Of a DNA stretch of 64,000 nt, positions 1,314 to 43,373 are shown piece after piece. Numbering within the stretch: position 1 is the first letter of the stretch; each line of letters opens with the position of its first letter. The stretch is from a virus: positions 1 through 64,000 of IMG/VR virus record IMGVR_UViG_3300021197_001521, one strand, 5' to 3'. A model generated the notes under the pieces. The model was given only the letters and a program-made list of their open reading frames with translations, had not been told where the DNA came from and searched no databases. The position numbers and the translations under genes are program-made.

Positions 1314-1321
1314 AGGTAAAT

Positions 1322-1840
1322 ATGAGCTGGCAAGGTCAAATGTCTACAATAGTTAGACACTTAGTAAATGATTTAGATCCCGATACTTACAAATATAGTG
1401 ATCATAGAATAGAAACTTCTATATTGGTTGCGTCACAATTAATGATAATGAACGTTGATTTTAACAATACTTACGATATAAACGTAGAGACTTGCTTACT
1501 TTCCCCTGATCCAACGGACGAGGGTACAAAAGACAATCCGTTTATAACACTATCTTCCTTGCGGGCTGCGTGTATAATTATAGGAAGTGAAATAAGAAGC
1601 GAGTCCGGGAACGCAATATCTATCAAGGACGGACCTTCTGCAATTGACCTTAGAGGTGTAACACAAACCCTCACGGTTTTATACAAAGATTTGTGTGAAA
1701 AGTACGAAAATTTACTTTTAGAATATAGAGCTGGAAGCAGTATCGCTGGTCATGCAATACTTGGACCTTATGCCCCCGGTTCCGATTTGATAACCAGAAA
1801 CAATACAGACCACAGATCCGGTGGTTATTTTAATTATTAG
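1322..1840 (+). CDS. Putative head-tail adaptor
   Basis: Size; helical N-terminus (VRHLVND..YKYSD.RI); ISIKDG beta-hairpin followed by a helix; position ahead of neck genes; GAGG RBS. Confidence 0.5.
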   Translation: MSWQGQMSTIVRHLVNDLDPDTYKYSDHRIETSILVASQLMIMNVDFNNTYDINVETCLLSPDPTDEGTKDNPFITLSSLRAACIIIGSEIRSESGNAISIKDGPSAIDLRGVTQTLTVLYKDLCEKYENLLLEYRAGSSIAGHAILGPYAPGSDLITRNNTDHRSGGYFNY

Positions 1841-1851
1841 GAGAGATAAAA

Positions 1852-2850
1852 ATGACTTGTGACTCAAGAACACCGTCTCAACTGAACTCCGGTCAGTTAA
1901 TTGATAGTATAAAGTGCGATTTAGCAGACAATAACGCCGGTTTAATATCTGCCGCAGATGTTAGAGAAAATATGGAGGATATTGCATTTTCCATAAATAA
2001 AGTTGTTGCCAGCGGGGACACAGAGACTGCATTTCCTTTCTTTAATGCTGTAAAAGCAACGACAATATCAGGCGGGTCTGGAATGTTTATCCCAGAATCT
2101 GGTATTTCTTTCCCTAATTCTCCGGTTGAGTCTGAAAGAACTAAACTTCAGGTGAGACCTTGGTTGGGTCCAGAGGGAATAAACCATGACGAACTTTCTG
2201 GTAGAAGTTCTAGTGATAACGCACATACTCAATATCTTCCAAGAACTGGGTCTAAAAAGATGCAGGGCAATCTTGGAATGGATAATAACTGGATTAACTC
2301 TTCCGGCAGCGTTCTAGATGATGGTTCGCCCTATAGTTACTCAGATAGAGGGTTTAGATTTGTATCAAATTTAGATTCTGACACAAATTACCAGTATGAC
2401 GATGTTGAGATTGGAACTTCCGGCAGTTTGAAGTTCAACAAGGATCTTTCAAGTACTGATAGTTTTCATGGAGTTGCTAAAGCTTGGTTGAGATTTACAG
2501 CTTCTGCAACCCCAGAGGTTTTAAGTTATCATAATATTAGCGGTATAGAAAGAACAGCTCAGGGTAAATACACTATAACATTTACCAGCGGCACTTTTAT
2601 GAACAATAATTATGTTGCCGTAGCAAACTCAAACGCTAGAAGTTCTGCTTCTAACGGAGATGACTTTGACTTGAATACAGTTGGTTGTTTTTACAGAACT
2701 GGGGACGACGGAACGACCCTAAGAACAATTTCCTACCATATACAAAAAGACGACAATAGTTTTGTAGATGGATCGGTTTGTGATCTCGTATGCTATGGAT
2801 TTGAACCGGGATCTAGATCTGGCACTCCTCCAACTGTAACTGTCTCCTAA
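1852..2850 (+). CDS. Virion structural protein (collar/fibre-like), Ser-Gly rich
   Basis: C-terminal AKAWLRF...SYHNISGIERTAQGKYTITF domain of a type seen in phage fibre proteins; 11 SG dipeptides; GGAG RBS. Confidence 0.55.
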   Translation: MTCDSRTPSQLNSGQLIDSIKCDLADNNAGLISAADVRENMEDIAFSINKVVASGDTETAFPFFNAVKATTISGGSGMFIPESGISFPNSPVESERTKLQVRPWLGPEGINHDELSGRSSSDNAHTQYLPRTGSKKMQGNLGMDNNWINSSGSVLDDGSPYSYSDRGFRFVSNLDSDTNYQYDDVEIGTSGSLKFNKDLSSTDSFHGVAKAWLRFTASATPEVLSYHNISGIERTAQGKYTITFTSGTFMNNNYVAVANSNARSSASNGDDFDLNTVGCFYRTGDDGTTLRTISYHIQKDDNSFVDGSVCDLVCYGFEPGSRSGTPPTVTVS

Positions 2851-3800
2851 TGTCTATAATCATACTAAATGACAGAATAAAAGAAACCAGTAGGGATACT
2901 GGTACGGGGCATCTTACGTTAGATGGCGCTGCTCAAGGTTTTAGTAGTTTTGACAGCGCTTATTCATCTGGAGATATTCTTTATTACGCTATTTCAGACG
3001 GCACGAATTATGAAGTGGGGTCCGGTGTCTTTCATACCGATGGAGTATATGATCGACTAGAAAGGTCTGCTCACAAAAGCACAAACAGTAACAATAATGT
3101 TAATTTTTTAGCGGGTGTAAAAGAAGTATACGTCACTCATCCCGGAAAATTTTCCGTATTTACTGCAAGTGGGGTTCAAGACTTCAAAGAACCTAAGAGT
3201 AGCGGATTAGCGTTTTGGGAGTCTAGTCAGATACTGAATTACGACGAGAATATAATATGGAACTCAGATTCTAACCTTTTAGGAATAAGAAAAAGTTCTC
3301 CTACTTATGCTGTTGATATAGGTGGTCCTCAAGAGTATTCTCAAGTAAATACTTCTGGTTTAATAGTTGGTAATTCTGGGGTTATGTTTTCTGGAGAAAA
3401 TGTAGCAGTCAGAGGTAGACAAACAATCCCCTTTCAACAAAACGAATTCATAGACACGGAAACTACAAATATTGAAGAATGTCTTCAATTAAGCGGTGTT
3501 GTAAATGAGTACATAGGGTTTAAAAAGCAACCGCCCGCTAGAGTTTTTGCTGGACCTTCTGGAACCTGCGGTTGTACGGAAGACTATCCTTCATTTAGAC
3601 CCCTTAGATTTGATGACATACAAGGCGTAACTCAAATAATAAATAGTAGCGGAAATTTAGCGATACCTACATTCGCTAATCAAGCGGCAGTTATAAGTAA
3701 TATATCGGCGGATCAGGCAGGAGTATTAGCATTTAGCACTAGTGACAATTATTTGATGATAGCTAATGGCACAAGTTGGGTCAAAATTCAATTATCGTAA
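2850..3800 (+). CDS. Virion structural/fibre-like protein, Ser-Gly rich
   Basis: N-terminal DRIKET..TGTG.LTL.GA..GF motif common in phage structural proteins; LGI..SSPTYAVDI fibre-type repeat; C-terminal NGTSW; 10 SG dipeptides. Confidence 0.6.
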   Translation: MSIIILNDRIKETSRDTGTGHLTLDGAAQGFSSFDSAYSSGDILYYAISDGTNYEVGSGVFHTDGVYDRLERSAHKSTNSNNNVNFLAGVKEVYVTHPGKFSVFTASGVQDFKEPKSSGLAFWESSQILNYDENIIWNSDSNLLGIRKSSPTYAVDIGGPQEYSQVNTSGLIVGNSGVMFSGENVAVRGRQTIPFQQNEFIDTETTNIEECLQLSGVVNEYIGFKKQPPARVFAGPSGTCGCTEDYPSFRPLRFDDIQGVTQIINSSGNLAIPTFANQAAVISNISADQAGVLAFSTSDNYLMIANGTSWVKIQLS

Positions 3801-3815
3801 CAATCGGAGAGAAAA

Positions 3816-4025
3816 ATGTCAGACGTACTAAAACCCGTCATTAATTCAAACTCAATAAAGAATGGATCAATGGTGGTATACCAAACAAAAAGTCAAACTT
3901 CAATTAGTTCGACTTCTAAGAGAGATCCAGATTTAAATTCATTCGTTCCTTCTGGTACTTTACATACGAGACTAGACACTAGATTTGATGATGTAAGATA
4001 CTATAGTGGCGACACTGCAAACTAG
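3816..4025 (+). CDS. Hypothetical small protein
   Basis: 69-aa ORF with GGAG RBS filling the gap between neighbours. Confidence 0.55.
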   Translation: MSDVLKPVINSNSIKNGSMVVYQTKSQTSISSTSKRDPDLNSFVPSGTLHTRLDTRFDDVRYYSGDTAN

Positions 4026-4035
4026 GACTAATTAG

Positions 4036-4509
4036 ATGCCAATTACTATACCTCAATCAGTTTTCGACAAATACTATGACGTTGTTGACTCCACATTTAA
4101 TATATTTGGAGTTACATGTCAGTTAGTATATATTGAAAAAGTTGAAGTAATTGATAATTCATATGATAATATCCCAGACAATAGATCTATAAATTCTCAT
4201 AGAAGGAGGGGCGGCAATCATAAGAGAGCAGACAAAACCTTCAGAGAAGTGGAGAAAGTAGAAGATATCAAATTAAAGGTTTACTGGGATAGTAAAAGTT
4301 GGGTAAATCCGGGTGGCAATATTGTTTTGCCGGAAAGGGGGGTTCAAACTATTTTCTTTGCTACAGACCTTCCTAAGATAATGAGAGCAAAAGAGATAAT
4401 TGTACACAAAAATATAAAAGAACTGAGAGAGTTTAGGTTCCAGAAAAAAGGCGAACCGTTTCCAATGGGTATAGGGCAAGAAAGATACTTCGGCTGTTTC
4501 TGGGAATAA
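4036..4509 (+). CDS. Putative head-closure (stopper) protein
   Basis: Size, beta-rich pattern and position between adaptor and neck/terminator genes. Confidence 0.45.
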   Translation: MPITIPQSVFDKYYDVVDSTFNIFGVTCQLVYIEKVEVIDNSYDNIPDNRSINSHRRRGGNHKRADKTFREVEKVEDIKLKVYWDSKSWVNPGGNIVLPERGVQTIFFATDLPKIMRAKEIIVHKNIKELREFRFQKKGEPFPMGIGQERYFGCFWE

Positions 4510-4510
4510 C

Positions 4511-5143
4511 ATGATAACTTTAAAACTATTAGGTAGCGATGCTAGTATAACCAAAACCATACATGCTGCAATCGCTAAGTCTATAAACGAAATAATATCA
4601 AAGAAAAAAAGAAAAGTAGAAGCTAAACTTAAAAGAGCAGTTCGTTTCTGGATTACGGCAACGCCAGAGATTCAAAGTCTAATGGAAAAAGGAATTCCTA
4701 ATAGTCTTAACTCTCAATTTGGATTAAGAAACATAGACGCACAAGCTGCTGTCGAGGCGATAGTTAGTAGTGTTGTTAACTCCGCAGAAATAAGAATATC
4801 AAAAATAAACAACAAACTTAATGGCAAAATAGAGTTTAATTTTCAACCATCAGACCTTCGCAATTTACTAGGACTACCAGAAGGTCATGTGATGACAGAA
4901 AAAGGGCAAGACTTACACTGGTTAGACTGGTTGCTGACAAAAGGTAACACAACTGTTATTATAGGATATACCTATTCTACTTCCGGTGACGGAAGGTCTG
5001 GTGTAGGTTCTATGAAAAAAGGAGGTTCCTTTAGGGTTAATCCCCAGTTTTCCGGTACTGTCAATAATAATTTTATAACGAGATCTCTGGTTTCCAGAGA
5101 ACAAAAAGTTATAAGTATTTTAAGCGAGGTGTTAAGTGCCTGA
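4511..5143 (+). CDS. Putative neck/tail-completion protein (HK97 gp10/Ne1-like)
   Basis: Basic protein; WL(L)..G motif; C-terminal GT..NNFITR.L; canonical position before the terminator gene. Confidence 0.5.
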   Translation: MITLKLLGSDASITKTIHAAIAKSINEIISKKKRKVEAKLKRAVRFWITATPEIQSLMEKGIPNSLNSQFGLRNIDAQAAVEAIVSSVVNSAEIRISKINNKLNGKIEFNFQPSDLRNLLGLPEGHVMTEKGQDLHWLDWLLTKGNTTVIIGYTYSTSGDGRSGVGSMKKGGSFRVNPQFSGTVNNNFITRSLVSREQKVISILSEVLSA

Positions 5144-6110
5144 TTATTTGAAACTAAAAGGTATAACAGACATAAAAGAAAGCACCTTGAATAATGAAAT
5201 TCAGGATGGGATTATAGAATACTTTGATTGGGCATTGTTGGGTGTTGGTAATTATTATAATGTCACATATGCTGAACAATCGCCTTATGACCAAGATTAC
5301 AGTAAACTAAGACTATCTTCTGATCCTAATTATTTTGAGGGGCAGGTATGGGAAGGTTTTAGATCAAACTGGGTTTGGCAAAGTGGTGTTGACTATTCGC
5401 CTGCTCCACTAGTTAGTTCGGATAATACAAATCCCGGAGTTTCTGGTATTTATGTAGATGGAGTTTTTCACGCAAATGATTCTACTGGTACTTATGCTCA
5501 CCACATAGATCATTACAACGGAAAAGTTATTTTTGATAGTGCTATACCTACAGGTTCGGTGGTTCAAGCTGAATTTAGTTATAAGTGGATAAATGTTGTT
5601 TATGCTAATGATGTTCCTTGGTTGAGAGAAGTTCAGACCGATTCTATGGAACCTACTAGCAGTTTTTACGAAAAAGACAAAGGAGATTGGAATATACCGC
5701 CAGAAGCAAGACTTCAACTTCCTGCCGTGGCGGTAGAAATAGTCCCAATGAGATCTTTCAAAGGATTTAGACTAGGAGGTGGTCAGTGGGTTTACACAGA
5801 TGTGATATTCCATTGTATAGCAGAGGACGAAATGACCAGAAACAAACTTGTGGATATTATATCACTTCAGAGCAATAAAACTATTTTCTTGTTAAATAGT
5901 AATTCTGTTTCTGCTAGTGGTGATTATCCCTTAGATTACCGTGGTGTGCCAGTTTCCGGCGCTTTGAGATATCCAGATCTGCTTGTAAAGCATGTAGGAT
6001 TAAGACTCAGGTTCACAGATACTACAGTGGAAAACATGACCTCGGTGGCATCAGATATCTATGGTGGAATTGTTAGATTTAAGACAGAACTGATAAATCT
6101 AAAAATATGA
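5136..6110 (+). CDS. Putative tail terminator with an inserted beta domain
   Basis: LPAVAVE...GG....DVIFHCIAE....RNKLVDII terminator-like pattern, immediately upstream of the tail tube gene. Confidence 0.55.
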   Translation: MPDYLKLKGITDIKESTLNNEIQDGIIEYFDWALLGVGNYYNVTYAEQSPYDQDYSKLRLSSDPNYFEGQVWEGFRSNWVWQSGVDYSPAPLVSSDNTNPGVSGIYVDGVFHANDSTGTYAHHIDHYNGKVIFDSAIPTGSVVQAEFSYKWINVVYANDVPWLREVQTDSMEPTSSFYEKDKGDWNIPPEARLQLPAVAVEIVPMRSFKGFRLGGGQWVYTDVIFHCIAEDEMTRNKLVDIISLQSNKTIFLLNSNSVSASGDYPLDYRGVPVSGALRYPDLLVKHVGLRLRFTDTTVENMTSVASDIYGGIVRFKTELINLKI

Positions 6111-6118
6111 CCATTTTT

Positions 6119-6134
6119 GTGTATAATAAATAGA
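6119..6134 (+). promoter_or_regulatory. GTGTATAAT motif, candidate late promoter of the tail tube gene
   Basis: Intergenic GTGTATAATAAATAGA about 40 nt before the ATG at 6161; no canonical -35 element. Confidence 0.6.
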
Positions 6135-6160
6135 AACTTCTTTTAATATGGAGAGATAAC

Positions 6161-7210
6161 ATGGCTGTGACACAAAACCAAAGAATCATATATTCCTGTC
6201 AGGCGGTGGGGGTTGGTCCTACCGGGGTTGACTTGACCACTGTAATTCCCGTTCACGGTGTTCAAAGTGTTGGTATTACCACCAACTTCAATCTTGAGCA
6301 AGCTTTCGAGTTGGGTCAGATTGAAATCTATGAAAACATAGAAGGTGTACCTGACGTTGAAATCACTATGGAAAAGGTGCTAGACGGTTATCCGCTTATA
6401 TATCATCTTGCGACAACGGGTGTCTCAGCTGGTGGTGGAGAAGGACTCCTCAACAGACTCAAGCAAAGATGTAATGTTGCTCTTGGTATCTTTGCGGAAG
6501 CTTTTGATAATGTTGCTTCAGCAGAGGCTAGTGGTGACGTTAGTTCTCAAGTTAAGTGTACTGGAATGTATGTTTCTAGTCTCTCCTATTCTTTGCCAAC
6601 TGAAGGTAATTCTACAGAGAGTATTACTTTTGTTGGAAACCACAAAGAGTGGATTACAGATGGTAGCATATTTAACAGCGGATCTGCTGCTGACATAGTA
6701 GATTTTAATGGTGAAGATGAACCTCTTGCGCTTAGTAGTGACGGCGTTAACGCATCCGGTGGTATCCAAAGAAGAGAAGACATACTAATTTCTAGTTCCA
6801 GTCTTCCTGCTTCGGTTTTTGGTGGTCAAGCCGCTCACATCCAAAGTGTCTCAATTAGCAGTGACTTTAATAGAGAAGAAGTTTTCGAGTTGGGTGCTAA
6901 GATTCCTTACTATAGACCGGCACAATTCCCTGTTGAGGTTAGTTGTGAAATTGAAGCAATTTCTGTTTCTGGTGATTTTATTCAAGCGATTGAGACTGGA
7001 GACCCAACCTTATATTCAACTAAGGCCTCTGGCAATAATACTTCCGAAGAAACAATCATGTTCCTGACTCGCGCTGGTTATAAATTCGATCTAGGTAGTA
7101 AGAATAGACTCCAAAGTGTTTCTTATGGTGGAGGAGACGCAACCGGAGGAAACGCAACGATGACCTATAGTTTCATTAACTTTAACGACCTCAACGTTTC
7201 ACAAGTGTAA
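6161..7210 (+). CDS. Major tail tube protein (two tandem tube-like domains)
   Basis: Internal duplication VQSVGITTNFNLEQAFELGQ / IQSVSISSDFNREEVFELGA; strong GGAG RBS; lies before chaperones and tape measure gene. Confidence 0.75.
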   Translation: MAVTQNQRIIYSCQAVGVGPTGVDLTTVIPVHGVQSVGITTNFNLEQAFELGQIEIYENIEGVPDVEITMEKVLDGYPLIYHLATTGVSAGGGEGLLNRLKQRCNVALGIFAEAFDNVASAEASGDVSSQVKCTGMYVSSLSYSLPTEGNSTESITFVGNHKEWITDGSIFNSGSAADIVDFNGEDEPLALSSDGVNASGGIQRREDILISSSSLPASVFGGQAAHIQSVSISSDFNREEVFELGAKIPYYRPAQFPVEVSCEIEAISVSGDFIQAIETGDPTLYSTKASGNNTSEETIMFLTRAGYKFDLGSKNRLQSVSYGGGDATGGNATMTYSFINFNDLNVSQV

Positions 7211-7304
7211 AACCACTTATAGCGATAGCTTTTAGGACAGCGAGTTTTTGTGGTAAGGAAAGGATAAAAAATGTATATAAATAAATCCCGCCATGAGGTT
7301 TTGT

Positions 7305-8339
7305 ATGAAGCAACATGAGCGGGATTATTTTGTATCTAGGATAAGAAATGGAAAGTATAGGATTCAAATTTTTAAGCAAGAGTTAGAAATATTGAGTCCG
7401 ACAATAGAGGATGAATATTATATAAATAAAGCGTATATGGATGGTATGGAATCTTCTTTAGACGAAGGTTTTAAGACTAACGAAGAGATGGTTTTTTGGA
7501 TGGTAGAAAAAAATCTGTGGTCTTACAATGAAGACGCTGATTTAAAAATGTATCAACAAAAGGTAAAAGATTTAAAAATAGATATATACAATGCAAGAAA
7601 CTCCATAAAATTAAGAGAACGAGTTAGATCTGAAATTAGGAATACAGAACTTGAGGTTAGCAAACTAAATCAAAAAAAGTCAGCATACTACAATAACACT
7701 TGCGAAGGAATAGCAACAGTAGAAAAGATATCAGAGTTTTTAAAAAGATGCACATTTTGTAAGGGTGAGTTGTATGATTTTGAAGAATTGCCAGTAGATT
7801 TAGTTTCTGGTAAATACTATTCTTTATTTCTAACAGAGCAGCAGATAAGAGAATTAGCAAGAAATGAACCTTGGAGAACCATCTGGAGTTTAAACGATAC
7901 TAATTCAGTTTCGCTTTTTAACAACGGAGGCAGGGAACTTTCTCACGATCAAAAAAATATAATGGTTTGGTCTAAGATGTATGACAACGTACAAGAGTCT
8001 ATGGACTGCCCACAAGACGATATTATAAAAGATGATGATATGTTAGACGGTTGGTTTTTAGTTCAGGGGAAAAAGAGAGACGAAGAAAGGTCTAAAAGTG
8101 AGGTTGATAACTTAAACTCTAAAGTTGCTGCGTCTCAAGAAGTTTACTTGATGGCAAACTCAAAAGAAGACAGAAGAAGAATAGATAGTTTAAATTCATT
8201 TGAAAGTACGGTAATCAAAAAACAGAGAGAACAAGTTATCAAAAAACAAGGAAGCGCAAAGCAACTCGATTTTCCAGACGAAAAACTAAAAGCACAAAGG
8301 ATGCAAACAGAAGGTATGAGAAATCAATTTAGGAGATGA
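7305..8339 (+). CDS. Putative tail assembly chaperone/non-structural protein
   Basis: Charged, helical protein between tube and tape measure genes; likely start MKQHER after GAGG. Confidence 0.5.
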   Translation: MKQHERDYFVSRIRNGKYRIQIFKQELEILSPTIEDEYYINKAYMDGMESSLDEGFKTNEEMVFWMVEKNLWSYNEDADLKMYQQKVKDLKIDIYNARNSIKLRERVRSEIRNTELEVSKLNQKKSAYYNNTCEGIATVEKISEFLKRCTFCKGELYDFEELPVDLVSGKYYSLFLTEQQIRELARNEPWRTIWSLNDTNSVSLFNNGGRELSHDQKNIMVWSKMYDNVQESMDCPQDDIIKDDDMLDGWFLVQGKKRDEERSKSEVDNLNSKVAASQEVYLMANSKEDRRRIDSLNSFESTVIKKQREQVIKKQGSAKQLDFPDEKLKAQRMQTEGMRNQFRR

Positions 8340-8340
8340 T

Positions 8341-8703
8341 ATGGATGATTATAACAATCTAATTAGACAACACGCAGAATACAAGAAAGTAAAACAAGAG
8401 AAATTCGGCGTTGAGTCTAAAGATAGGTTGTCTAAAATTTTAAAGAAAAAAGTAATCACTACGATGATAGGTTCTTTAAGTTCTATAGAGAAACATTTTG
8501 GTTTTCTTTGGGAAGGAGACCCAGAATCTCTAACACCAGAACAAAGAACGATGTACGATATTTATCAAAAGACTAGGGAAGAGATTTTAGACAAAGGCAA
8601 TACTCAGGCAAAAAATGTTGATGCTGAACTAAGTCAGTATGAAATTAAATGGTTAAGGTATAATAGTAATATTCCAGTTAAAATTAAAGAGGATAAGGAA
8701 TGA
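8341..8703 (+). CDS. Hypothetical protein (tail assembly region)
   Basis: 120-aa helical ORF with AGGAG RBS. Confidence 0.55.
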   Translation: MDDYNNLIRQHAEYKKVKQEKFGVESKDRLSKILKKKVITTMIGSLSSIEKHFGFLWEGDPESLTPEQRTMYDIYQKTREEILDKGNTQAKNVDAELSQYEIKWLRYNSNIPVKIKEDKE

Positions 8704-9539
8704 AAAAAGAAACAAAGGTCCAAGTGGGCGACAAGCAAGTTGGTATATACGTCACTTCTCCAAACGGCAATGTTGTGGGAAGGGCAGATAGATACAAGGC
8801 AAAAATATTCACAGAGTGCATTGAAGACGGAATTAAAACTAAAGATGAGTTGAGTTCTTTCTTGAGTGATAGGGGGATATGGACAAAAAATCACGACAAA
8901 AAACAAGCAGAAATCACACAAAAACTACTGGACTTAGAAAAAGAAATTTATCTAGGAACGGGCAAGAAAAAACTACCCCTGTCTGATGGGGTGAAAAAAG
9001 CAATAGAAATGAGGTCTTTGAGAATAGAACTCCAGCAGTTGATGGTAAAAAGAATAGAAATGGAGCAAAATACCGCAGAGTCACTTGCGGATAATGCCAG
9101 ATTTGATTTTCTGGTTGCGAACTGTACTTTTTACGAAAACGGAGAAAGAGTGTATAATGGTATAGACGATTTCAGTAGTAAATCGGCAGACGATATTGCT
9201 TTTTCTGCTGGTTCGCTTCTAGCAGAGATGATTCATGGTTATGATTCCAGCATAGAAGATTCCCTGCCAGAAAATAAGTTTTTGAAGCATTTTGATCTAC
9301 TGAATGAAGACGGAAGTCTCGTTGACGAGAAAAAAGAACTTGTTGACACAGAAGGTAGAAGAATAAATGAATTTGGTCACTATATCGACGAAAAAGGAAA
9401 TAGAATTGATATAGAAGGAAACCCAATGGACAAAGATGGTAATTATATAATTCAAGTAGACTATGAGAAAGTGAAAAAACCTGCGGCAACTAAAAAGAGG
9501 GTAACAAAGAAAAGGACCACCCCCGCAGCCAAAGGTTAA
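8700..9539 (+). CDS. Putative tail assembly chaperone with heptad DxxG repeats and Lys-rich tail
   Basis: Directly upstream of the tape measure gene; ATGA overlap; coiled-coil region. Confidence 0.5.
   Translation: MKKETKVQVGDKQVGIYVTSPNGNVVGRADRYKAKIFTECIEDGIKTKDELSSFLSDRGIWTKNHDKKQAEITQKLLDLEKEIYLGTGKKKLPLSDGVKKAIEMRSLRIELQQLMVKRIEMEQNTAESLADNARFDFLVANCTFYENGERVYNGIDDFSSKSADDIAFSAGSLLAEMIHGYDSSIEDSLPENKFLKHFDLLNEDGSLVDEKKELVDTEGRRINEFGHYIDEKGNRIDIEGNPMDKDGNYIIQVDYEKVKKPAATKKRVTKKRTTPAAKG
9303..9449 (+). repeat. Seven tandem 7-aa (D/N)xxGxx(I/V) protein repeats
   Basis: NEDGSLV DEKKELV DTEGRRI NEFGHYI DEKGNRI DIEGNPM DKDGNYI. Confidence 0.8.
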
Positions 9540-9574
9540 ATGGATAGTCTGGTCATAACACCAAGAGAAATTAA

Positions 9575-12500
9575 ATGGCTAGATTTTTACTAACCGCTCA
9601 GTTACAGCTTAGAGCTCCATCAAACACTCGACAAGTTGTCTCTCAAATGCAGAGGCAGCTCAGGGGTGTTAATGTAAATGTAAACGTAAGAACAGCAGCA
9701 GCATCTAGACAAGTTAACACTCTAAATTCTGCTACTCAGAAACTAAACAAAAGCGGTGCGAATATAGGGAAAACTTTTGCCGTATCTCTTAGGAGATTCG
9801 CGGCATTCTCTATTGCAACTAGAGCAGTTACTCTCTTCAGCAATAAACTATCTGCTGGCATAGAAGATGCTATACAGTTTGAAAGAGAGTTAGTCAAGAT
9901 TTCTCAGGTCACTGGGAAAACTATTACTCAGTTAAACGGTCTTTCTTCTACGATTACTAGACTTTCTACAAGTTTAGGTACTTCCAGTAAATCATTGCTT
10001 TCTACTGGTAGGATTCTTGCTCAAGCAGGTATTCAAGCAAAAGACCTAGATACTGCTTTGGATGCTCTTGCAAAAACAACTCTTGCTCCTACGTTTGATG
10101 ATATAACAAAAACGGCAGAGGGCGCAGTTGCTATTCTGGCACAGTTTGGAAAAGGTGTTGGCGCTCTTAAAGAGCAGTTAGGTGCTATCAATGCGGTTGC
10201 TGGTCAGTTTGCTGTGGAATCTGGTGACTTGATTTCTGCTGTTCGCCGTACTGGTGGTGTGTTTAAATCTGCGGGTGGTGAACTTAATGAACTCATAGGT
10301 TTGTTCACAAGTGTTCGTGCAACAACCCGTGAAAGTGCAGAAAGTATTGCAACTGGTCTTAGAACTATCTTTACACGTATTCAACGTCCTAAGACTATAG
10401 AATTTCTTAAACAGTTTGGTGTTGAACTTACAGATCTAAACGGTAAGTTTGTTGGACCTTTTGAAGCAGTTAAAAGACTGAGCGCTGCATTTAAAGGGTT
10501 AGAAGAAGGTGATATTACTTTTGTTAGAGTCGCGGAAGAACTTGGTGGTTTCCGTCAGATTGGTAAAGTTATACCACTTATTCAACAGTTTGAAGTTGCT
10601 GAACGAGCAAGGGCAGCAGCAGTAAAGGGTGCAAACTCTCTGGATAGAGATGCTGCTACCGCACAGCAAGCATTAGCAGTTCAGTTTGAGAAAACAAGAG
10701 AAAGATTTCTGGCATTGATTCGTGATATTGCTGGAAGTAATTCTATTCAAACTCTCGTTCGTAGCACTCTTAGTTTAGCAGAATCCCTTACTAAAGTCTT
10801 AGAAGCGCTTAAACCAATTATACCTTTGCTGGGTGCTATGGCCGGCGTAAAACTTGCCGGTGTACTGGGCGCTGGAGCAAGGGGTTTAGGTGGAGCGCTT
10901 GCTAGAAGAAATGCTGGCGGTCCTATAGGATTGAATCGCGGAGGTATGGTTCCCGGTACTGGGAATACAGATACAGTTCCGGCAATGCTTACTTCTGGTG
11001 AGTTTGTAATTCGCAAGAATAGTGTTAGAAAAATAGGCGCTGATAATCTTGCTCGAATGAATGCTACAGGTTTTGCTGCTGGAGGTCAAGTTGTAAGGGG
11101 TAGACATGGTTATGGTCCTCAATCTCCTACTTTAAGGGAAGCAGTAGCAGCACGAAAAAAACAAGCAGTGGCAGACCCAACTAAAACGATAACAGGGGGC
11201 AAAAAAGGCGTAGGAACGATGACGCCACTAACTTCCGCTCAGAGAAAAGCGGAATTAAAAGCAAGCAAGTTTGCAGATGAAGATATTTACGCTGCTGCAT
11301 TTTTAACGCCAGAGGGTAGAGATCAACAATATAAAGGGTTCATTAAAAAAGACAATCTACAGAAAGCGATTAGAGCATCCCTTCCCGCAGGAATGGTTAA
11401 TTTTACCAAATCGAAGAAAAAGGGGCAATTAACAGGGGCTAACTATCAAGCTGTTGCTGAAAAATATGCTAGAAGAAACACTTTTAGAATTGATGCTGGA
11501 TCACTTGAAAAGGTAGCTGCAAACAAACTAGAAGATACTCTTTTAGACGGAGTTGTTAGTACTACCAGAAAAGGCGCAAAACAAATAAATAATTCCTTGG
11601 GAATACAAGGTACTGAAAACATAGCAGATGCTTTAAAGAGCTCAAACATAGATCAGGTTATGGGAAACCTGTTTGAATTAGTTTTAACCAATGCTGGCGC
11701 ACCATTTGGCGTACCTGACACAGATCCTCCTAATGCTCCTTTTGATTTTCCTCAAGGTTTAGGTTCTTCTATAGCAAAACAGTTTGGGATAGGTTCAAAA
11801 TCTAAAACTGACGCAAAGTCTTTCTTTAGTACTCCAAACTTAGCGTCTATGAACAAAAAAGTTCAAAACGAACTTGCAAATGAAACTATAAAAGAATTAA
11901 CACCTATATTTAAAGAATTGCAGGTGTCAGAAAAAAGAGCAACCGCTACTCTAAACTCTGGTGGTCCTACTCCTAAGTCCGATGTTGTTCCTGCTATGCT
12001 AACTCCGGGTGAGTTTGTTATAAATAAAGGCGCTGCCAAGCAGATCGGCATGGGCAACCTAAATAGAATGAACAAACACGGGGTTGCTGGGTTTGCTGCT
12101 GGTGGAGTTGTTAGAAGTGGTAGAAATAATTATGGTTCCGACGCAGGCATGGGTATGCAAATCAGGACACCCGGAGGAGGATCTATTAGTGCTGGCGCAA
12201 GCAATGCTTCAATAAGTTCAGCGATGGGAACTAAAGATGCAACACAAGCGTCTACAAAAGCAATTAACGATCAGACTAAGGCAACCGAGAAATTAACGAA
12301 GGGTCATAACGATCAAGAGAAGAAGATAAAAAGTAACAATGCTGGCATGAAGACGATGGGACTTGTTATGGCAGCAAGTATGATTCCTCGTTTTGAAGAT
12401 GCTGACAGTGGAATAAAAGCTGCTGCAAACTCTATGCTTGATTTATCAATGCAAGTTGGTGTTGTTATGATGGCACTTGATGCCTTTGGGGTAAAGTTGA

Positions 12501-15500
12501 ATTTTAGCGGTGCTAATCCCGGAATGTCTAAAAAGGGTTTTGGTCAGTCTGGCGGGTTTAGTCAAAGAGGAATGGCCGTAAGAGGTCAAGCGGGTGGGAC
12601 AAGGTTTGGAAATTTCGCCAGTGATAAGTTGAAACTTAAAGAAGGTGGAAAGCTTCGGGGTGGAATAACTAAAGGTTTTGCTAAATCAGGGCGTGCAGCG
12701 GGCGCCGTTACTGGAGGGATTCTAAACCCAGCAAGTGGAGCTGGCGCAATTACGGGTGCTATTGGACCAATTGTGGCAGTTGCTGCTGCTGCTGGCGCAT
12801 TGGGAATGGCTATGGATGCGCTATCGGGTGTTCACAAAGAAGCAGAAGTAGCAATCAGGTCGGGTAATGCTGCTAGGGCAGAGGATACTGCTCTTGCTTC
12901 TGCAAATGCAAAGTCAAGTACTATGATGGCTGCTGGAGGTGCTGCTGCTGCTGCTGCAATAGCTGCACTCGCAGGCGCGACATTACCTGTGGTTGCTATC
13001 ATTGGAGGAGTTGCTGCGGCAGGTTTATTACTTATGAAAGCATTTAATGCGTTAGATCCTGCTGTTGAAAAATTTAGAAACTTTATGGTTCTGTTTGGCG
13101 GTGCTTCGTCTGAAACAATCAAAGCTCAAGCAGCATCTAAAGCAACTATAGTCGCAGAAGAAAAAACAAGAAAGAAAGCCAATATTGCATTAGCTGCTTC
13201 TATGAAAAGAGGCGATAGAGCTGGTGCTGCTCAAGCAGCAAAAGATATTGCAGCATCTGGAGACAGAGAAGCAAAAGCAAGAATGAAAGCTTTGCAAAAA
13301 GAAGAAGCAGACGCAATGAGAGCAGCCTCAGGCGGCGGGTTTATGGGACTGGGTGGTGATGGTGGATTAAAAGAGGTTCAAGCAAAAATAGCAGAAGAAC
13401 AGGAAAAAGAAAGAACCCGAAGAGGTGCTGGTCTAGGAAACGTAATGCAATTAAATCAGGACAGAATAAAAAGAGCAGGAGCAAGGGGTCAAGTATTAGA
13501 CGCAGATGCACTTGCGGCAGACTTTGATATAAATCTCTCTCAAGCAGGTGAAGCAGGAGTTCAGTTTAGAAAAGATGTTATTGCTATGGCAAAGGCAGCA
13601 AAGACAAATGCCGACCAACTCAAAGCATTAAACTTTGGTCTTGCGGGAGCGTCTGCTGCTGCTCAAGGTGCTGCATCTGAACTAGATAGATTTTTAGCAT
13701 CTAGAGAAACAGGCACTTTTGACGCAACTTCCATTTTAGAACAAGCATTAACTTCTTCTGCTGGTTCTCTGAACCCTCGCGATTTAGCAAGAGCGCAAGG
13801 TCAGTTAGGAGCATCAATGAGATCGGTGGGCGCTACTGATGCTCAGATTGCAGAAAGCACTCAGTCTATCGGAGCGTTAGCAAAAGTCCAACAAGTTGGA
13901 GAGTCAATATTTAAAAGGGTTGCTTCAACTGCTGAAGAAAGAGGTAGAGGCGGTCCACAAGAGATATTGGAAGATTTCCGACAGCAGTTACGTTCTCAAT
14001 TAGGAGGGGTTCCCAAGGCGATACAGGACAAGGTGCTGACAGGCATCACTAAACCAGACGGGGATGCGTTAACAGATGCCTTAGACTCTCAAGATTTTTC
14101 TAAAGTATTCCAAGGTTCACTAGATGCAGTTAAAACATCACTAAAAGACGGTGCGATAGGCATACAAAAAACAAATCAAGAAAATAATAAAAAGTTAGCA
14201 GGTTTATATAAAGAAAGAATCGCTAACGAGTCACAATTCATAGAAGCACAAAAGAAAAGCATACAACTACAATCAGAAGCAGCAGAACTTATAGCAGAAT
14301 TTTCTGGCAAAGAGTTTACTACTCAACAAAAAACAGGTTTTGCAGAAAGAGAAGCAAGAGCAGGTTTGGGTGCGGGCGCTGACTTGTCGGCAAGTGGACT
14401 TATTGCTAGGTCTAGACTTGCTTCGCAGCAGGTAATTGCCGGTAGACAAGTTTTAAGTAGACCTAGTTTTAGTGATCCTAGACAAGCAGCTGTTGCCGCT
14501 GGACAAGTACAAAACGCAGAAGGCGATCAGCAAGAAATACTTAAATTTGCAAGAGACAGGATTAAAATATATAAAGATGAGATTTCGGCAGCGAAAGATA
14601 AACTAAAGTTAGATCAAGAGGCAGCAAAAGCAGCATTGTCGGGAGATCAACAGGGTCAGTTTGAAGCAACATTAGCGTCCATTGCCGCAAGTGCGTTTAG
14701 AAGCGGCAACGCTGGTCTTTTAGGTCAAATTGAAGGAGACGCAAGACTTAAAGGATTTGAATCGTTATCAGACAGTGAGAAAAAGGCATCTGAAGGCACA
14801 CTGAAAGCACTTGGATTAAGCAGTTCACTCGCAGAATCTCTTGCTGAATCAACTCCTGAACTTGATAAACTTCAATCCGCAGCAGCGCAGACTGCTCAAG
14901 TAATAGCAGAAGTTGGAAAGAACCTAGAATCAATAGCAAAAGGTAAATTTGATCAAACCACAATGGATATAAAACAAGCAACAATACGTATTGGTCAGAG
15001 TGTACAAAGACAAAATCAACCTCAACAGTTTAGAGGTCAAGGATCGCCTGCTCCGCAAACTAGATCGCGAGGTGGAATTATATATGCTAGTAACGGAATG
15101 TTTGTACCAAGAGGCACAGACACTGTTCCTGCCATGTTGACACCCGGAGAGTTTGTTGTTAATCGCGCAGCAGTTCAGCGTGGTAATAATTTACAAGTAT
15201 TAAGAGCAATGAATAATAGTGGGTCATCTGCTGGTGAGGGTGCAGCATACATGAATGCGGGCGGTCCAGTAAGATATAGAAATGGAGGTTCAAGCGGACC
15301 AGAAGCAGGTGGAGGAATGTTTGGTGGATTTAGCGAGTCTATAACTAAATTTACTAACTCTTTATCTAGTTTTAGTACATCTGTAGAAAAACTTATTGGG
15401 TTTGAGTTTAAGTTAAAGCTAGATCCGGTAAATATAACTGTTAGTATAAACGAAGGTTCACTAAAGAAAGATGTCAAAGATCAAGTGCTAATGGCAGTTG

Positions 15501-15550
15501 TAGACGAAATTCAAATTAATCAACTAGGACAATTAGAGAAGAAGGCATAA
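9575..15550 (+). CDS. Tape measure protein (TP901/PhageMin_Tail-type core)
   Basis: 1991 aa, Ala/Gly-rich and helical. Core motif ESAESIATGLRTIFTRI; central hydrophobic segments; three VPAMLTxGEFV modules; canonical position. Confidence 0.92.
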   Translation: MARFLLTAQLQLRAPSNTRQVVSQMQRQLRGVNVNVNVRTAAASRQVNTLNSATQKLNKSGANIGKTFAVSLRRFAAFSIATRAVTLFSNKLSAGIEDAIQFERELVKISQVTGKTITQLNGLSSTITRLSTSLGTSSKSLLSTGRILAQAGIQAKDLDTALDALAKTTLAPTFDDITKTAEGAVAILAQFGKGVGALKEQLGAINAVAGQFAVESGDLISAVRRTGGVFKSAGGELNELIGLFTSVRATTRESAESIATGLRTIFTRIQRPKTIEFLKQFGVELTDLNGKFVGPFEAVKRLSAAFKGLEEGDITFVRVAEELGGFRQIGKVIPLIQQFEVAERARAAAVKGANSLDRDAATAQQALAVQFEKTRERFLALIRDIAGSNSIQTLVRSTLSLAESLTKVLEALKPIIPLLGAMAGVKLAGVLGAGARGLGGALARRNAGGPIGLNRGGMVPGTGNTDTVPAMLTSGEFVIRKNSVRKIGADNLARMNATGFAAGGQVVRGRHGYGPQSPTLREAVAARKKQAVADPTKTITGGKKGVGTMTPLTSAQRKAELKASKFADEDIYAAAFLTPEGRDQQYKGFIKKDNLQKAIRASLPAGMVNFTKSKKKGQLTGANYQAVAEKYARRNTFRIDAGSLEKVAANKLEDTLLDGVVSTTRKGAKQINNSLGIQGTENIADALKSSNIDQVMGNLFELVLTNAGAPFGVPDTDPPNAPFDFPQGLGSSIAKQFGIGSKSKTDAKSFFSTPNLASMNKKVQNELANETIKELTPIFKELQVSEKRATATLNSGGPTPKSDVVPAMLTPGEFVINKGAAKQIGMGNLNRMNKHGVAGFAAGGVVRSGRNNYGSDAGMGMQIRTPGGGSISAGASNASISSAMGTKDATQASTKAINDQTKATEKLTKGHNDQEKKIKSNNAGMKTMGLVMAASMIPRFEDADSGIKAAANSMLDLSMQVGVVMMALDAFGVKLNFSGANPGMSKKGFGQSGGFSQRGMAVRGQAGGTRFGNFASDKLKLKEGGKLRGGITKGFAKSGRAAGAVTGGILNPASGAGAITGAIGPIVAVAAAAGALGMAMDALSGVHKEAEVAIRSGNAARAEDTALASANAKSSTMMAAGGAAAAAAIAALAGATLPVVAIIGGVAAAGLLLMKAFNALDPAVEKFRNFMVLFGGASSETIKAQAASKATIVAEEKTRKKANIALAASMKRGDRAGAAQAAKDIAASGDREAKARMKALQKEEADAMRAASGGGFMGLGGDGGLKEVQAKIAEEQEKERTRRGAGLGNVMQLNQDRIKRAGARGQVLDADALAADFDINLSQAGEAGVQFRKDVIAMAKAAKTNADQLKALNFGLAGASAAAQGAASELDRFLASRETGTFDATSILEQALTSSAGSLNPRDLARAQGQLGASMRSVGATDAQIAESTQSIGALAKVQQVGESIFKRVASTAEERGRGGPQEILEDFRQQLRSQLGGVPKAIQDKVLTGITKPDGDALTDALDSQDFSKVFQGSLDAVKTSLKDGAIGIQKTNQENNKKLAGLYKERIANESQFIEAQKKSIQLQSEAAELIAEFSGKEFTTQQKTGFAEREARAGLGAGADLSASGLIARSRLASQQVIAGRQVLSRPSFSDPRQAAVAAGQVQNAEGDQQEILKFARDRIKIYKDEISAAKDKLKLDQEAAKAALSGDQQGQFEATLASIAASAFRSGNAGLLGQIEGDARLKGFESLSDSEKKASEGTLKALGLSSSLAESLAESTPELDKLQSAAAQTAQVIAEVGKNLESIAKGKFDQTTMDIKQATIRIGQSVQRQNQPQQFRGQGSPAPQTRSRGGIIYASNGMFVPRGTDTVPAMLTPGEFVVNRAAVQRGNNLQVLRAMNNSGSSAGEGAAYMNAGGPVRYRNGGSSGPEAGGGMFGGFSESITKFTNSLSSFSTSVEKLIGFEFKLKLDPVNITVSINEGSLKKDVKDQVLMAVVDEIQINQLGQLEKKA
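10907..11116 (+). repeat. Tape measure GG-DTVPAMLTxGEFV-RMN-FAAGG module, copy 1
   Basis: LNRGGMVPGTGNTDTVPAMLTSGEFVIRKNSVRKIGADNLARMNATGFAAGGQVVRGRHGYG. Confidence 0.85.
11951..12136 (+). repeat. Tape measure module, copy 2
   Basis: LNSGGPTPKSDVVPAMLTPGEFVINKGAAKQIGMGNLNRMNKHGVAGFAAGGVVRSGRNNYG. Confidence 0.85.
15062..15290 (+). repeat. Tape measure module, copy 3
   Basis: RSRGG...GTDTVPAMLTPGEFVVNRAAVQRGNNLQVLRAMN...YMNAGGPV. Confidence 0.85.
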
Positions 15551-18500
15551 TGTTACAGTTAAGTTGTTCATGCGACGGTCTATCTCAAGAGGCAATTGCC
15601 GAAGGTGTTATATCCGCACAAACATCCATGAGGATGGCGGCAGACACTAAGGTTAAAGCAATGGGTAGACTACAGTCTCCCATATTAAAACCTGATTACG
15701 AAAAGTGTTTACCTGTAACGCTCATAGAAACTGCTGTGGGTGAAGGTCCGATATACGACATTGAAATAGATCCTTATCAGTTTGGAGATTGCGATTATGA
15801 TAGTTCTTATTACAACACAAACGATTACTGTGACTTAGAAGACGGTAAAATAAAAGAAGAAATATTAGAGTACATTGTAAATGACGGTCAAGCAGTAATA
15901 GATTATGATATTGGTGTTCAACCAACCTTCTTTAGCGGTGCTATTGGCGAAGAGGTAATTTGGATATCTCCTGCTCTGGTCGATAAAAACTATGAGAAAG
16001 AGTATGATGTCTCTTATGATTATTCTACTTTACCAAGCGATCCTCTAGATATCTTTGACCCTGATTATATCTGTTGTGATAGTATTAATCTCACAGATCC
16101 TAACAGAAAAAAAATTATAGATATAATTGATCCCGATTATACTGCCCCCTGCGATTGCTGTCCTAGACCAAGACCCGGACAAAGAGCTGAGGCAATTAGA
16201 CCAAAACACAATGTGTTAGATTCTCAATTATCTAAAGATGGTAAGCATTATGCTTTTGCTTACAAAAATCTTTTTAAAAATGAGATAATTATAGAAGTAC
16301 ACGATAGAACCGAAGAAAGTTGGGCATACTTAGCTAAGATCAAAACAGAGCTCACAAACTTTGGCGCTTTCACTCTTAATGCAGACGCGACATTGATTGC
16401 CGTTTCTGACCACGAAGAAAGTTCTGTTCACGAAAAGTCCGGTAGGATTAAAATATACCAATTTGACGCTCTTGATAAACAGTACGTTAGAGTAGATCAA
16501 TTAGGTTTTGATACTGGTATTGCAAAATCGTTTACACCATCTGGATTTGATTTTAATTATCAAGATGACATAAGAACGCCCAGAAACTTTATTATACAAA
16601 GACAAGACGATGAAGTTTTTGTGCTGGGTGAATTTCCTCAAATGTTCAGCGACTCTTTTGCTGAAGTATCTGAAGACCTTATTGATGTTGACAGAATATT
16701 CAACACAACCAACGAAGATGACTTCTTCGCACTCTTAGGCGCTAATACTTTTGATAATTACGTAGCAATACTAAAAGACAAAACAATAAGAACTTGGGGT
16801 AATATATTTCTGCCTGATGGAGTTGCTAAATCAGTAAACGGAAAAGCAGAAGACATAGTGTCTAGCAAGAAGGCATTTGCTCTATTAACAACAGACAGTA
16901 AGGTAGAGTGCTGGGGTGATGTAGAAAAGTTTTCTTGGAGAAAGATAGACGAAGTAGACGGAGAGCATTACGATGTTTCTGACAGTCTTACTGACGTTAA
17001 AAAAATATTTTCTAACTCAGATTGTTTTGCTGCTCTTAAAAACAACGGTCAGGTTGTAAGCTTTTCAAAAAGATTTGGAGATCACCTACTAGGAGGAAGT
17101 CCGTATGTGTGGTCTGAGTTTGAAGTTACACCTAGATCTGAAGTAGATTTATCTAACATTGAAACAATAGTTGGCGGTAAACAGTGTTTTGCTGCAATAA
17201 CTAAAAATATTCCTGAAATAAAAAGAAATACTCTTGCTTGTTGGGGTAATGAAAAATTTGGCGGCGATGTAGATAGAAACTTATTTGGTTCTAAAATAGG
17301 TATTGAGACAATAGAATCAAACAGGTCTGGATTTGCTGCAATAGGAAAAGATAAAAAAATAACCACTTGGGGTTCTACAGATGTAGGCACAGAGGATCAG
17401 CAGTCTAGTTTAGCTCAGGATGATAATTTTAAGACACATATTCATCCCTCTATATCAGATGCAGGTAATCCAGCATACCAGCAAAGTCAATATGTAAAAT
17501 CGAAACTTGGGTCGGAAGCATTTTCAAAAATAGTTCCTTCTCTTTTTTCTTTTGCTGTTTTAACAGAGGGCGGTCTGGTTGTAACTTGGGGAAATCCTTA
17601 TGCGGGCGGTTTGTCGTTTTTAGATGATTCTTCTGGACTCAACAGTTTAATAGCATTACCAGACAATGTGACACTATTAAATTCTGAGTCAGATCTTACT
17701 GGTGTATCTGAAATATATGCTACAGCAGCTGCCTTTGCTGCACTGAAAACAGACGGAACCATTGTTACTTGGGGCAACACACAATTCGGTGGAGACTCAT
17801 CTGGTATAAGTCTTAATAATATTGCCAAGGTAGCGAGTACGGTAGGCGCTTTTGCTACTATAAATAAAACGGGAGGAATTGTCGCTTGGGGTGATAAGGA
17901 ATTTGGTGGTCAAACAAGTTTTAATAATACAGATCCAGCAATAGACCTAAGTTCTGGGTTTACGGAAATATACGCAACAAAAAGTGGGTTCTTAGCATTT
18001 AAAGCTGATGGAACAGTTGTTGGTTGGGGTGATGACGCTAACTTTAAGGGTATAAAAAGTTTAGAATTCACAGGTTTGTTTGGTAGATCTAAAAACTTCG
18101 GACTAGGTTATTCGCTTTCGTTTAATGATGCGGGCGACAAATTAATATGTGGAAATAAAAAGAGAACATACCTCAGTACTTCTTTTGAGGTAGGATCTAT
18201 CAAAGCGTATCAAAGAAATCCCACGACTTTAAGGTGGAGAAGATTTGGTCAAGAAATAAAGACCGCTACCGCTTTTGACATGGCAATGGGAAGAATGGTT
18301 AAGTCTGATTCTACTGGTAATCGACTTGCTGCTTATGAAATAGTAAGCTCAGATAATGAATTCCCATCAAAACTAGGTATATATGAATATGATGCCGGTT
18401 CTTGGAAAAGGTCTGATCGAGTAAACTTGTTTCCTCACAGCAAAACATACTCTCCATTTATAAATAAAAGCAAGAACATTAGAATACCACACGGTATAGA

Positions 18501-33500: not shown

Positions 33501-33507
33501 GATTATC

Positions 33508-33975: not shown

Positions 33976-33978
33976 AAA

Positions 33979-38937: not shown

Positions 38938-38938
38938 G

Positions 38939-43321: not shown

Positions 43322-43333
43322 AATAACTTTTTC

Positions 43334-43350
43334 GTGTATAATATAACAGA
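43334..43350 (+). promoter_or_regulatory. GTGTATAAT motif, candidate late promoter
   Basis: Intergenic GTGTATAATATAACAGA 40 nt before the ATG at 43374, followed by an AGGAG RBS. Confidence 0.6.
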
Positions 43351-43373
43351 TATTCTTCACAGGAGATAAAACA

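Follow-up and report, generated by a model that had tools for sequence, protein, structure and literature searches.

Results

A tape measure protein with three copies of a short module

The window analyzed here is the whole 64,000-nucleotide stretch from position 1 of IMG/VR virus record IMGVR_UViG_3300021197_001521, which belongs to an uncultured marine phage. It carries a long open reading frame, P0001 (Table 1), which by its profile matches is a tape measure protein (TMP) of the PF10145 type. Residues 126-311 match PF10145 (PhageMin_Tail) with 84.8 bits against a curated cut-off of 33.2, and the ORF is also matched by the PHROG TMP families 4211 (E 2.9e-22), 28 (E 8e-17), 1533 and 5448. ORFs of 5,387, 595, 155, 1,652 and 1,460 aa follow downstream on the same strand. 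Our searches returned zero family matches for the neighbors of the TMP gene, so that the gene context is weak. Hydropathy analysis places one hydrophobic segment just before the first of the repeated modules described below, and makes the two Ala/Gly-rich segments in the middle of the protein candidates for its membrane-spanning part.

Table 1. Features of the TMP gene, with positions in the window and residues of the encoded protein
Feature	Position (nt)	Strand	Residues	Evidence
TMP gene (P0001)	9575..15550	+	1-1,991	ORF list and translation, 1,991 aa; PF10145 and PHROG matches
Hydrophobic segment, just upstream of module 1	10814..10876	+	414-434	Kyte-Doolittle, 19-aa window, up to 1.82
Module 1	10907..11116	+	445-514	GG..DTVPAMLTSGEFV..RMN..FAAGG..GYG; HMM match (core 456-507, nt 10940-11095)
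Exchanged block	11131..11953	+	520-793	Divergent allele in contig L081
Predicted folded alpha/beta domain	11207..11959	+	545-795	AF2, 77 sequences: pLDDT 89.5, pTM 0.84
GNLFE	11663..11677	+	697-701	G697 and E701 in 77/77 rows
PFDFP	11738..11752	+	722-726	D724 in 77/77 rows, F723 57/77, F725 65/77
TDAK	11807..11818	+	745-748	D/E746 75/77, K748 69/77
Module 2	11927..12136	+	~785-854	HMM match (core 796-847, nt 11960-12115)
Ala/Gly-rich hydrophobic segments	12731..13054	+	1053-1086 and 1115-1160	Hydropathy maxima 1.93 and 2.26
Module 3, ~100 aa from the C-terminus	15071..15250	+	~1833-1892	HMM match

An earlier note on this DNA had described two copies of a ~65-aa module flanking an insert. The two copies do flank the insert, but the copy number is three, module 3 having been missed. 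Over 65 aa, modules 1 and 2 share 55% of their residues (E 3e-19); for modules 1 and 3 the identity is 45% (E 3e-10). Because the copies share only 63-75% identity at the DNA level, with short exact runs, the duplication appears to be old and maintained at the protein level. Recombination between the copies within the genome was ruled out on the same figures. The module HMM also matches residues 753-784 of the 853 residues of lambda gpH (24.2 bits, E 1.3e-9 in a one-sequence search). These comparisons identify the modules as ancient and homologous to an element of gpH. The module motif was not found in the literature. When cultured phages were searched by tblastn only the modules were matched and the domain in none, and Nitrincola phage 1M3-16 has just the C-terminal module. 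Gly-rich stretches lie on both sides of every module in the TMP.

The insert is predicted to fold into a compact domain

The insert between modules 1 and 2 is ~275 aa long (residues 515-792, nt 11117-11950). It is rich in Lys, as the earlier note had stated (11.2% Lys, pI 9.7), in a TMP that is itself basic (pI 9.85). An AF2 run on all 410 aa of the unit, from 23 sequences, reached a pLDDT of only 63 and predicted the modules as disordered. The later, confident model of the domain alone (Table 1) has an alpha/beta fold and bears out the claim that the insert is globular rather than an extended helix. Two long helices of 30 and 42 residues account for much of the structure, and no strand follows the last helix.

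Structure and sequence searches returned no relative of known function. With the pLDDT 63 model, the best Foldseek E value was 0.14 and the best VIA-align Z score 4.5; the nuclease PspGI aligned to this weaker model with Z 3.2 and an rmsd of 4.6 over 111 residues. With the pLDDT 89.5 model, Foldseek found nothing above background in the PDB (best E 0.2) or among the predicted viral structures of BFVD (best E 0.74). VIA-align with this model, across 48,161 chains and in a second look, likewise stayed at background: the best match had Z 5.3 (54 residues, rmsd 2.8) and involved helices only, nucleases were absent among the best 50 matches listed, and the N-terminal part of the domain scored only Z 2.9 against the RPB5 C-terminal domain. 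The domain had no match in Pfam, PHROG, NCBIfam or the PDB sequences, and Pfam searches at E≤1 gave no accepted match for 39 domain members and 8 minimal versions. A hit to DUF637 in one member of the 39 (16.3 bits, below the cut-off of 26.6) was taken as noise. Queries of the ESM Atlas scored at most 0.82, the level of shuffled sequences.

A conserved acid/lysine motif with the order of a nuclease site

The domain combines a Gly-x-x-Phe-Glu helix and a Phe-Asp-Phe loop, both invariant, with an (Asp/Glu)-Ala-Lys strand. The three motifs lie at nt 11663-11818, in agreement with the range of about 11660-11818 given before. Mean column identity in the 77-row alignment is 6% and the sequences are at 16-40% identity, and across this divergence G697, E701 and D724 are the sole invariant columns. 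Position 746 is Asp in 67 rows and Glu in 8, while position 748 is Lys in 69, Thr in 6, Arg in 1 and a gap in one; the six sequences with Thr for Lys, which are visible in an earlier 62-row alignment, have an Arg directly after it. K762 is present in 65 of the 77 rows. Conservation of the acidic residues and the lysine, on which the proposal of a nuclease depended, is thus invariant or nearly so among very diverged homologues. In the model, E701 lies on the helix 692-706 (model helix 148-162), and a strand of five residues (model strand 200-204) carries D/E746 and K748. D724 is found in a loop rich in Pro, where DSSP assigns one beta-bridge residue, and does not begin a long strand. E701 and D724 are 23 residues apart, and D724 and D746 are 22 residues apart. 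Relatives with a short spacer (160-225 aa) retain only the E..(F/L/V)D(F/Y)..(D/E)xK core, with 10-15 residues between the Asp and (D/E)xK and patterns of the PDF..VEVK type.

PD-(D/E)XK nucleases have the same order of a Glu on a helix, an Asp, and (Asp/Glu)-x-Lys on a strand, and this order, together with the conservation, fits the membership proposed in the earlier note. Unlike the canonical alpha-beta-beta-beta-alpha-beta core, however, the model places the Asp in a loop and has no final strand, and neither a fold nor a family match accompanies the motif. In hhalign comparisons with PDDEXK_1, Mrr_cat, Uma2 and VRR_NUC the probabilities were 0.0-0.2%, but the alignments of these families were built from five bacterial genomes, the known families did no better with each other and the positive controls gave no signal, so that this comparison had no power. 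We found no link in the literature between a TMP and a restriction-endonuclease-like domain. The domain is a candidate, not an established, member of the PD-(D/E)XK superfamily.

The same slot holds the same domain family in uncultured phages

Searches of cluster representatives (E≤1e-3) recovered at least 506 clusters (50% identity) that have the domain in the same slot of the TMP. Modules are present on both sides in 105 of the 117 long matches, and the distance from the end of the domain to the following module has a median of 16 aa. The family is large, not previously described, and occupies the same TMP slot in uncultured, mostly aquatic phages. Among all relatives examined, only contig L072 has neither this domain nor its reduced motif version in the slot. 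Two relatives add an ADP-ribosyltransferase domain in the same slot, above the Pfam cut-off in L052 and just below it in L040. Unrelated cargo in the slot was considered and rejected, since the same family or its reduced version is found there in nearly all relatives examined.

The swappable cassette that had been proposed is therefore borne out in one respect and not in another: the insert is exchanged as a unit (see below) and some relatives have an extra ADP-ribosyltransferase in the slot, but the slot does not hold variable cargo. With the same family in at least 506 clusters, the slot comes close to the invariant spacer that the earlier note had opposed to its own reading.

The domain is exchanged between close relatives at the module borders

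The metagenome contig L081 is ~97-98% identical to the window at the DNA level on both sides of a divergent block (Table 1). By blastn, identity is 97.8% up to nt 11130 and 97.0% from nt 11954, and between these points only nt 11571-11900 align, at 67%. Read at base level, one breakpoint falls at nt 11130/11131 and the other at nt 11953/11954, each at a module border. The encoded proteins are 44% identical in the insert and 98-99% identical in the flanks. In three relatives that share 98-99% identity over the N-terminal 455 aa, the insert is 99%, 83% and 44% identical. These alignments demonstrate that recombination at the borders of the modules has swapped the whole domain between phages that are near-identical elsewhere. 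The modules had been suggested as recombination points, and the swap in L081 falls exactly there, between genomes. Exchange alone does not single out the domain because other blocks of the TMP, in residues 855-1800, are mosaic too.

Discussion

We propose that residues 445-854 form a conserved three-part unit, in which two modules of the lambda gpH type fence a predicted alpha/beta domain of ~250 aa. E701, D724, D746 and K748 would most likely constitute a hydrolytic site that binds a divalent metal and is of the PD-(D/E)XK-like nuclease type. As part of the TMP, the domain would pass out of the tail before the DNA does, and would act within or at the host cell. Ejection of TMPs precedes that of the DNA, and some TMPs contain enzymes (PMC12617516), as in the P23-45 example (PMC10770324). 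Because a near-identical phage has swapped the domain exactly at the modules, it is probably brought into the host by the tail. We infer that such a swap pattern is what a component in contact with changing host factors or defenses would show. The absence of structure and sequence matches, the position of D724 in a loop and the missing final strand count against a nuclease-type site. The lumen of the tail tube would also have little room for a 28-kDa globular domain in three copies unless these were unfolded or staggered, which counts against the proposal as well. For the whole reading, a three-part unit with a nuclease-type domain that is delivered by the tail and exchanged at module borders, we estimate a probability of about 0.4. 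The observation from which this work started is thus confirmed, but the interpretation attached to it is partly supported: variable cargo in the slot and a nuclease fold match find no support.

The domain could instead be a non-catalytic part, structural or binding a host factor, of the conduit through which the TMP crosses the envelope, the invariant Glu, Asp and Lys stabilizing the fold or binding a structural ion. Allele swaps would then reflect adaptation to host membrane proteins or escape from defenses that sense the TMP. We regard this as possible but doubtful. A confident model that matches neither a nuclease nor another enzyme fold and consists in large part of its two long helices would suit such a role, as would the location of the domain between the hydrophobic segment 414-434 and the Ala/Gly-rich cluster 1053-1160 and the swapped alleles that distinguish near-identical phages. 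In lambda, gpH mutations overcome the loss of ManYZ and gpH* forms a periplasmic channel (PMC12617516). Invariance of G, E and D alone at 16-40% identity is, however, a pattern that suits catalysis better than packing; the alternation of Asp and Glu at 746 and the compensating Arg beside the Lys position point the same way, and the minimal versions of 160-200 aa retain just the acid/lysine motif. These residues could also belong to a new peptidoglycan-degrading enzyme that opens the wall for the TMP channel. An invariant Glu on a helix with an invariant Asp 23 residues further on is compatible with the acid/base pair of a glycosidase, and no other lysin family was detected in this TMP. Several TMPs contain peptidoglycan hydrolases, and T5 pb2C has a proposed periplasmic role (PMC12617516 and PMC10194240). 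Yet neither the whole TMP nor the 39 homologues gave a Pfam match to SLT, lysozyme or M23 at E≤1, and the fold searches returned no lysozyme-like structure. To our knowledge, a conserved Lys two residues past the third acidic residue is unusual in lysozymes, which counts against a wall hydrolase too, and we consider this the least probable of the alternatives.

A more ambitious version of delivery takes the modules as the joints of a tail-borne polyprotein, where proteolysis, for example at FAAGG as the earlier note suggested, or docking would release freely interchangeable effectors into the host cytoplasm before the DNA enters: the nuclease-type domain and, in relatives, ADP-ribosyltransferases, payloads that phages would trade at the joints as host defenses change. 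If true, many uncultured phages, in one large group, would use the tape measure as a modular device for effector injection. Cleavage of lambda gpH into gpH* and gpHC takes place in its Gly-rich C-terminal region, upstream of the module homologue, but the cut site and the protease are unmapped and the module is part of gpHC rather than the place of the cut (PMC12617516). In the window, every module is flanked by Gly-rich stretches and alleles are swapped at the module borders, and some relatives carry the additional ADP-ribosyltransferase cargo; against this, the TMP has no protease motif, and all relatives examined but L072 hold the same family or its reduced motif in the slot. Such a polyprotein is in our view unlikely, though a little less so than a wall hydrolase.

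TMPs measure the tail, serve as a conduit for DNA and sometimes carry wall-degrading enzymes, and one is known with an RNA polymerase. The family described here, with at least 506 clusters and an enzyme-like invariant site, is missing from Pfam, PHROGs and the PDB, and would bring a widespread, uncharacterized function to the very start of infection by marine phages. A functional parallel is the giant TMP of Thermus phage P23-45, whose fused virion RNA polymerase enters the host together with the contents of the tail and is active in the cytoplasm (PMC10770324; bioRxiv 10.1101/2022.12.01.518664). That polymerase is a two-barrel enzyme at the N-terminus, whereas the putative enzyme domain described here has 250 aa and lies internally between modules. 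T5 pb2C and the TMP lysins of enterococcal phages and mycobacteriophages are also enzyme domains inside a TMP (PMC12617516 and PMC10194240; T5 pb2 is also cleaved, by the same sources). The domain described here lies in the N-terminal half of the protein and has no SLT, M23 or lysozyme match, unlike the TMP-embedded wall hydrolases at the C-terminal tip.

In lambda gpH, itself a TMP, the module takes the position that module 3 has here, ~100 aa from the C-terminus. It is the only module of gpH, with no adjoining folded domain, unlike the three modules here, two of which fence the 250-aa domain. The extreme C-terminus of gpH binds the hub protein gpI, gpH is processed to gpH* and gpHC, and no enzymatic activity of gpH is known (PMC12617516). 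The modules connect the architecture of this TMP to the lambda questions of how and why gpH is cut. A recent survey was unable to confirm any case of recent mosaicism for TMPs (PMC10684548). The swap between the window and L081 offers a clean, base-resolved example, between genomes that are ~97-98% identical.

Organization of the tape measure gene and its neighbourhood

The window is one part of a virus record of 84,235 bases. Its tape measure protein (TMP) scores well over the cut-off for PF10145 (phage minor tail / tape measure) and also matches several tape measure families of PHROG. The gene is followed on the same strand by an ORF of 5,387 aa and then by more large ORFs. For 15 neighbouring ORFs on the structural strand (window 996-9539 and 31713-44108), the thresholds applied left no family match in PHROG or Pfam, a single weak match to PF22238 falling under its cut-off; because neighbours both up- and downstream lack such families, this phage is far from cultured phages. 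Within the 5,387-aa gene, the related contig L081 (Ga0315315_10000197, encoding the TMP P0007) has about 180 nt (15685-15866) that are absent from the window (19229-19233), between flanks that are 91-92% identical.

Features of the tape measure gene in the window
Feature	Window positions	Strand	TMP residues	Basis or content
TMP gene	9575-15550	+		ORF translated, 1,991 aa
Insert	11117-11950		515-792	11.2% Lys, pI 9.7
First motif	11663-11677			GNLFE
Second motif	11738-11752			PFDFP
Third motif	11807-11818			TDAK
Ala/Gly-rich hydrophobic segments	12731-13054		1053-1086, 1115-1160	hydropathy
Module 3	15071-15250		~1833-1892	45% identical to module 1, E 3e-10

A conserved folded domain lies between repeated modules

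The earlier note had described two copies of a module flanking a Lys-rich, globular-looking insert with three short motifs, and each of these elements was recovered. Modules 1 and 2 (residues 445-514 and ~785-854) share 55% identity across 65 aa (E 3e-19), and the composition and motifs of the insert are as had been claimed. There is also a third module, which lies some 100 aa short of the C-terminus; a stretch of ~60 aa surrounding it is 60-90% identical among TMPs that are elsewhere 20-40% identical. At the DNA level the module copies share no more than 63-75% identity, and exact matches between them are short; the duplication is therefore old, with selection acting at the protein level.

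The insert forms a folded domain, and its family is large. Residues 505-800, used in a word-indexed search, retrieved 23 TMPs of one common layout at 30-100% identity, and scanning viral contigs with module patterns gave 80 loci; an iterated local HMM located the domain between the first two modules in 40 of 48 multi-module TMPs. A domain-only alignment searched against 1.84 billion cluster representatives returned 506 matches at E<=1e-3 (386 at E<=1e-10). The HMM confirmed the domain in 117 of the 120 matches of at least 1,500 aa, with modules on both sides in 105 of these 117 and a median gap of 16 aa from the domain end to the next module, while 31 short matches look like gene fragments. 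A few giant TMPs (P0031, P0087, P0102, P0115) carry two copies, and in P0095, P0124 and P0134 an uncharacterized stretch of over 1,100 aa separates module 1 from the domain.

Only G697, E701 and D724 are invariant in the 77-row alignment of domain homologues. At position 746, 67 rows have Asp and 8 have Glu; Lys occupies position 748 in 69, and K762 is present in 65; six sequences with Thr in place of Lys, visible in a 62-row alignment, have Arg directly after position 748. Seven TMPs with short spacers (160-225 aa) were missed by the HMM and show by eye a reduced motif (for example FEEA..LDY..GDAK, PDF..VEVK, MDF..IEAK), with 10-15 residues from the Asp to the (D/E)xK.

AlphaFold2 run on the 77 rows gave a confident model (pLDDT 89.5, pTM 0.84) with a small beta sheet, flanking helices and two long helices (30 and 42 residues), so that the extended helix that the earlier note had named as a refuting result does not apply. 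In it, E701 lies within a helix, D724 is in a Pro-rich loop that has a single bridge residue, and D746-A-K748 sits on a five-residue strand; no strand follows the last helix.

The proposed assignment to the PD-(D/E)XK nucleases would fit the motif order and spacing, which are the same as in those enzymes, and the conservation of the residues, but no fold or sequence match was found. Foldseek with the domain model gave best E values of 0.2 against the PDB and 0.74 against BFVD. VIA-align against 48,161 chains reached at most Z 5.3 (rmsd 2.8 over 54 aligned residues, helices only), and Z 3.5 in a second look; no nuclease was among the fold-search matches listed. The domain had no match in Pfam, NCBIfam, PHROGs or PDB sequences, nor by hhalign to four known PD-(D/E)XK families, which did not match one another either, so the hhalign comparison counts for nothing. 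The canonical order of core elements is not seen in the model, although the domain may represent a derived or permuted version of it.

Exchange of the whole domain

A swappable cassette had also been suggested. The domain is indeed exchanged as one piece, but in the relatives examined, with L072 as the sole exception, the slot is occupied by this domain family or by its reduced motif, not by unrelated cargo. The window and L081 are 97.8% identical in DNA over 3575-11130 and 97.0% over 11954-12512, whereas between 11130 and 11954 only 11571-11900 can be aligned, at 67%. At base level, identity stops 14 nt beyond the final codon of module 1 and restarts with the Asn-Ser-Gly-Gly at the start of module 2, and no other block of the pair is as diverged as the insert. 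Three relatives match this TMP at 98-99% identity over the first 455 residues and at 99%, 83% and 44% over the insert. A survey of phage protein mosaicism confirmed no recent TMP case (PMC10684548); the allele swap between the window and L081 is a recent case of that kind. Other blocks within residues 855-1800 are mosaic as well, so the whole TMP is a patchwork. A second replaced block relative to L081 (window 12513-12734, residues ~980-1054) lies in the Gly-rich basic linker after module 2.

Possible roles of the domain and its modules

Our most likely reading, with a probability of about 0.4, is that this conserved domain is enzyme-like, has a nuclease-type site that depends on metal, and would travel with the TMP into the host. 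The conservation pattern is as expected for an active site. Some independent support for host-directed enzyme cargo comes from an ADP-ribosyltransferase in the slot of relatives, reminiscent of injected phage ADP-ribosyltransferases, which suggests that this region may carry enzymes meant for the host. In L052 (L052:8895-10448) it follows the conserved domain and precedes module 2, and it scores above both cut-offs (PF03496 25.7 bits, PF01129 23.1 bits); the match in L040 (L040:7568-10117) is slightly below cut-off. The L054 TMP is also among these relatives. The main rival, somewhat less likely, is a non-catalytic role as part of a channel or as a binder of a host membrane factor. The Ala/Gly-rich segments look like a membrane-inserting part, judging from hydropathy, and their DNA contains GCT-rich imperfect repeats. 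As the domain is basic and lies between hydrophobic segment 414-434 and hydrophobic cluster 1053-1160, the positive-inside rule would point, if only weakly given the size of the domain, to a cytoplasmic location. A lesser rival, a new wall hydrolase, appears distinctly improbable.

Release of the domain from a polyprotein at the modules would be a separate layer, and we consider it quite unlikely. Cleavage of lambda gpH within the Gly-rich region at its C-terminal end yields gpH* and gpHC (roughly residues 690-853), with neither site nor protease known; the stretch 818-849 binds the hub protein gpI, and that of ~690-817, module included, was not resolved (PMC12617516). Since the module HMM matches gpH residues 753-784 (E 1.3e-9), module 3 is at the position of the single lambda module, and modules 1 and 2 are extra copies relative to gpH. 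Cleavage at or near the modules of this TMP would be a fair analogy.

Prophage TMPs of ~1,340 aa from Burkholderiales and others have two C-terminal modules ~130 aa apart, separated by a helical spacer without the E/D/K motif. They occur in L101, L119, L157 and about 50 other genome loci, in hosts including Ralstonia, Comamonas, Rhodoferax and Ramlibacter, and their first module is a variant (DTVPRTL.AGAFV).
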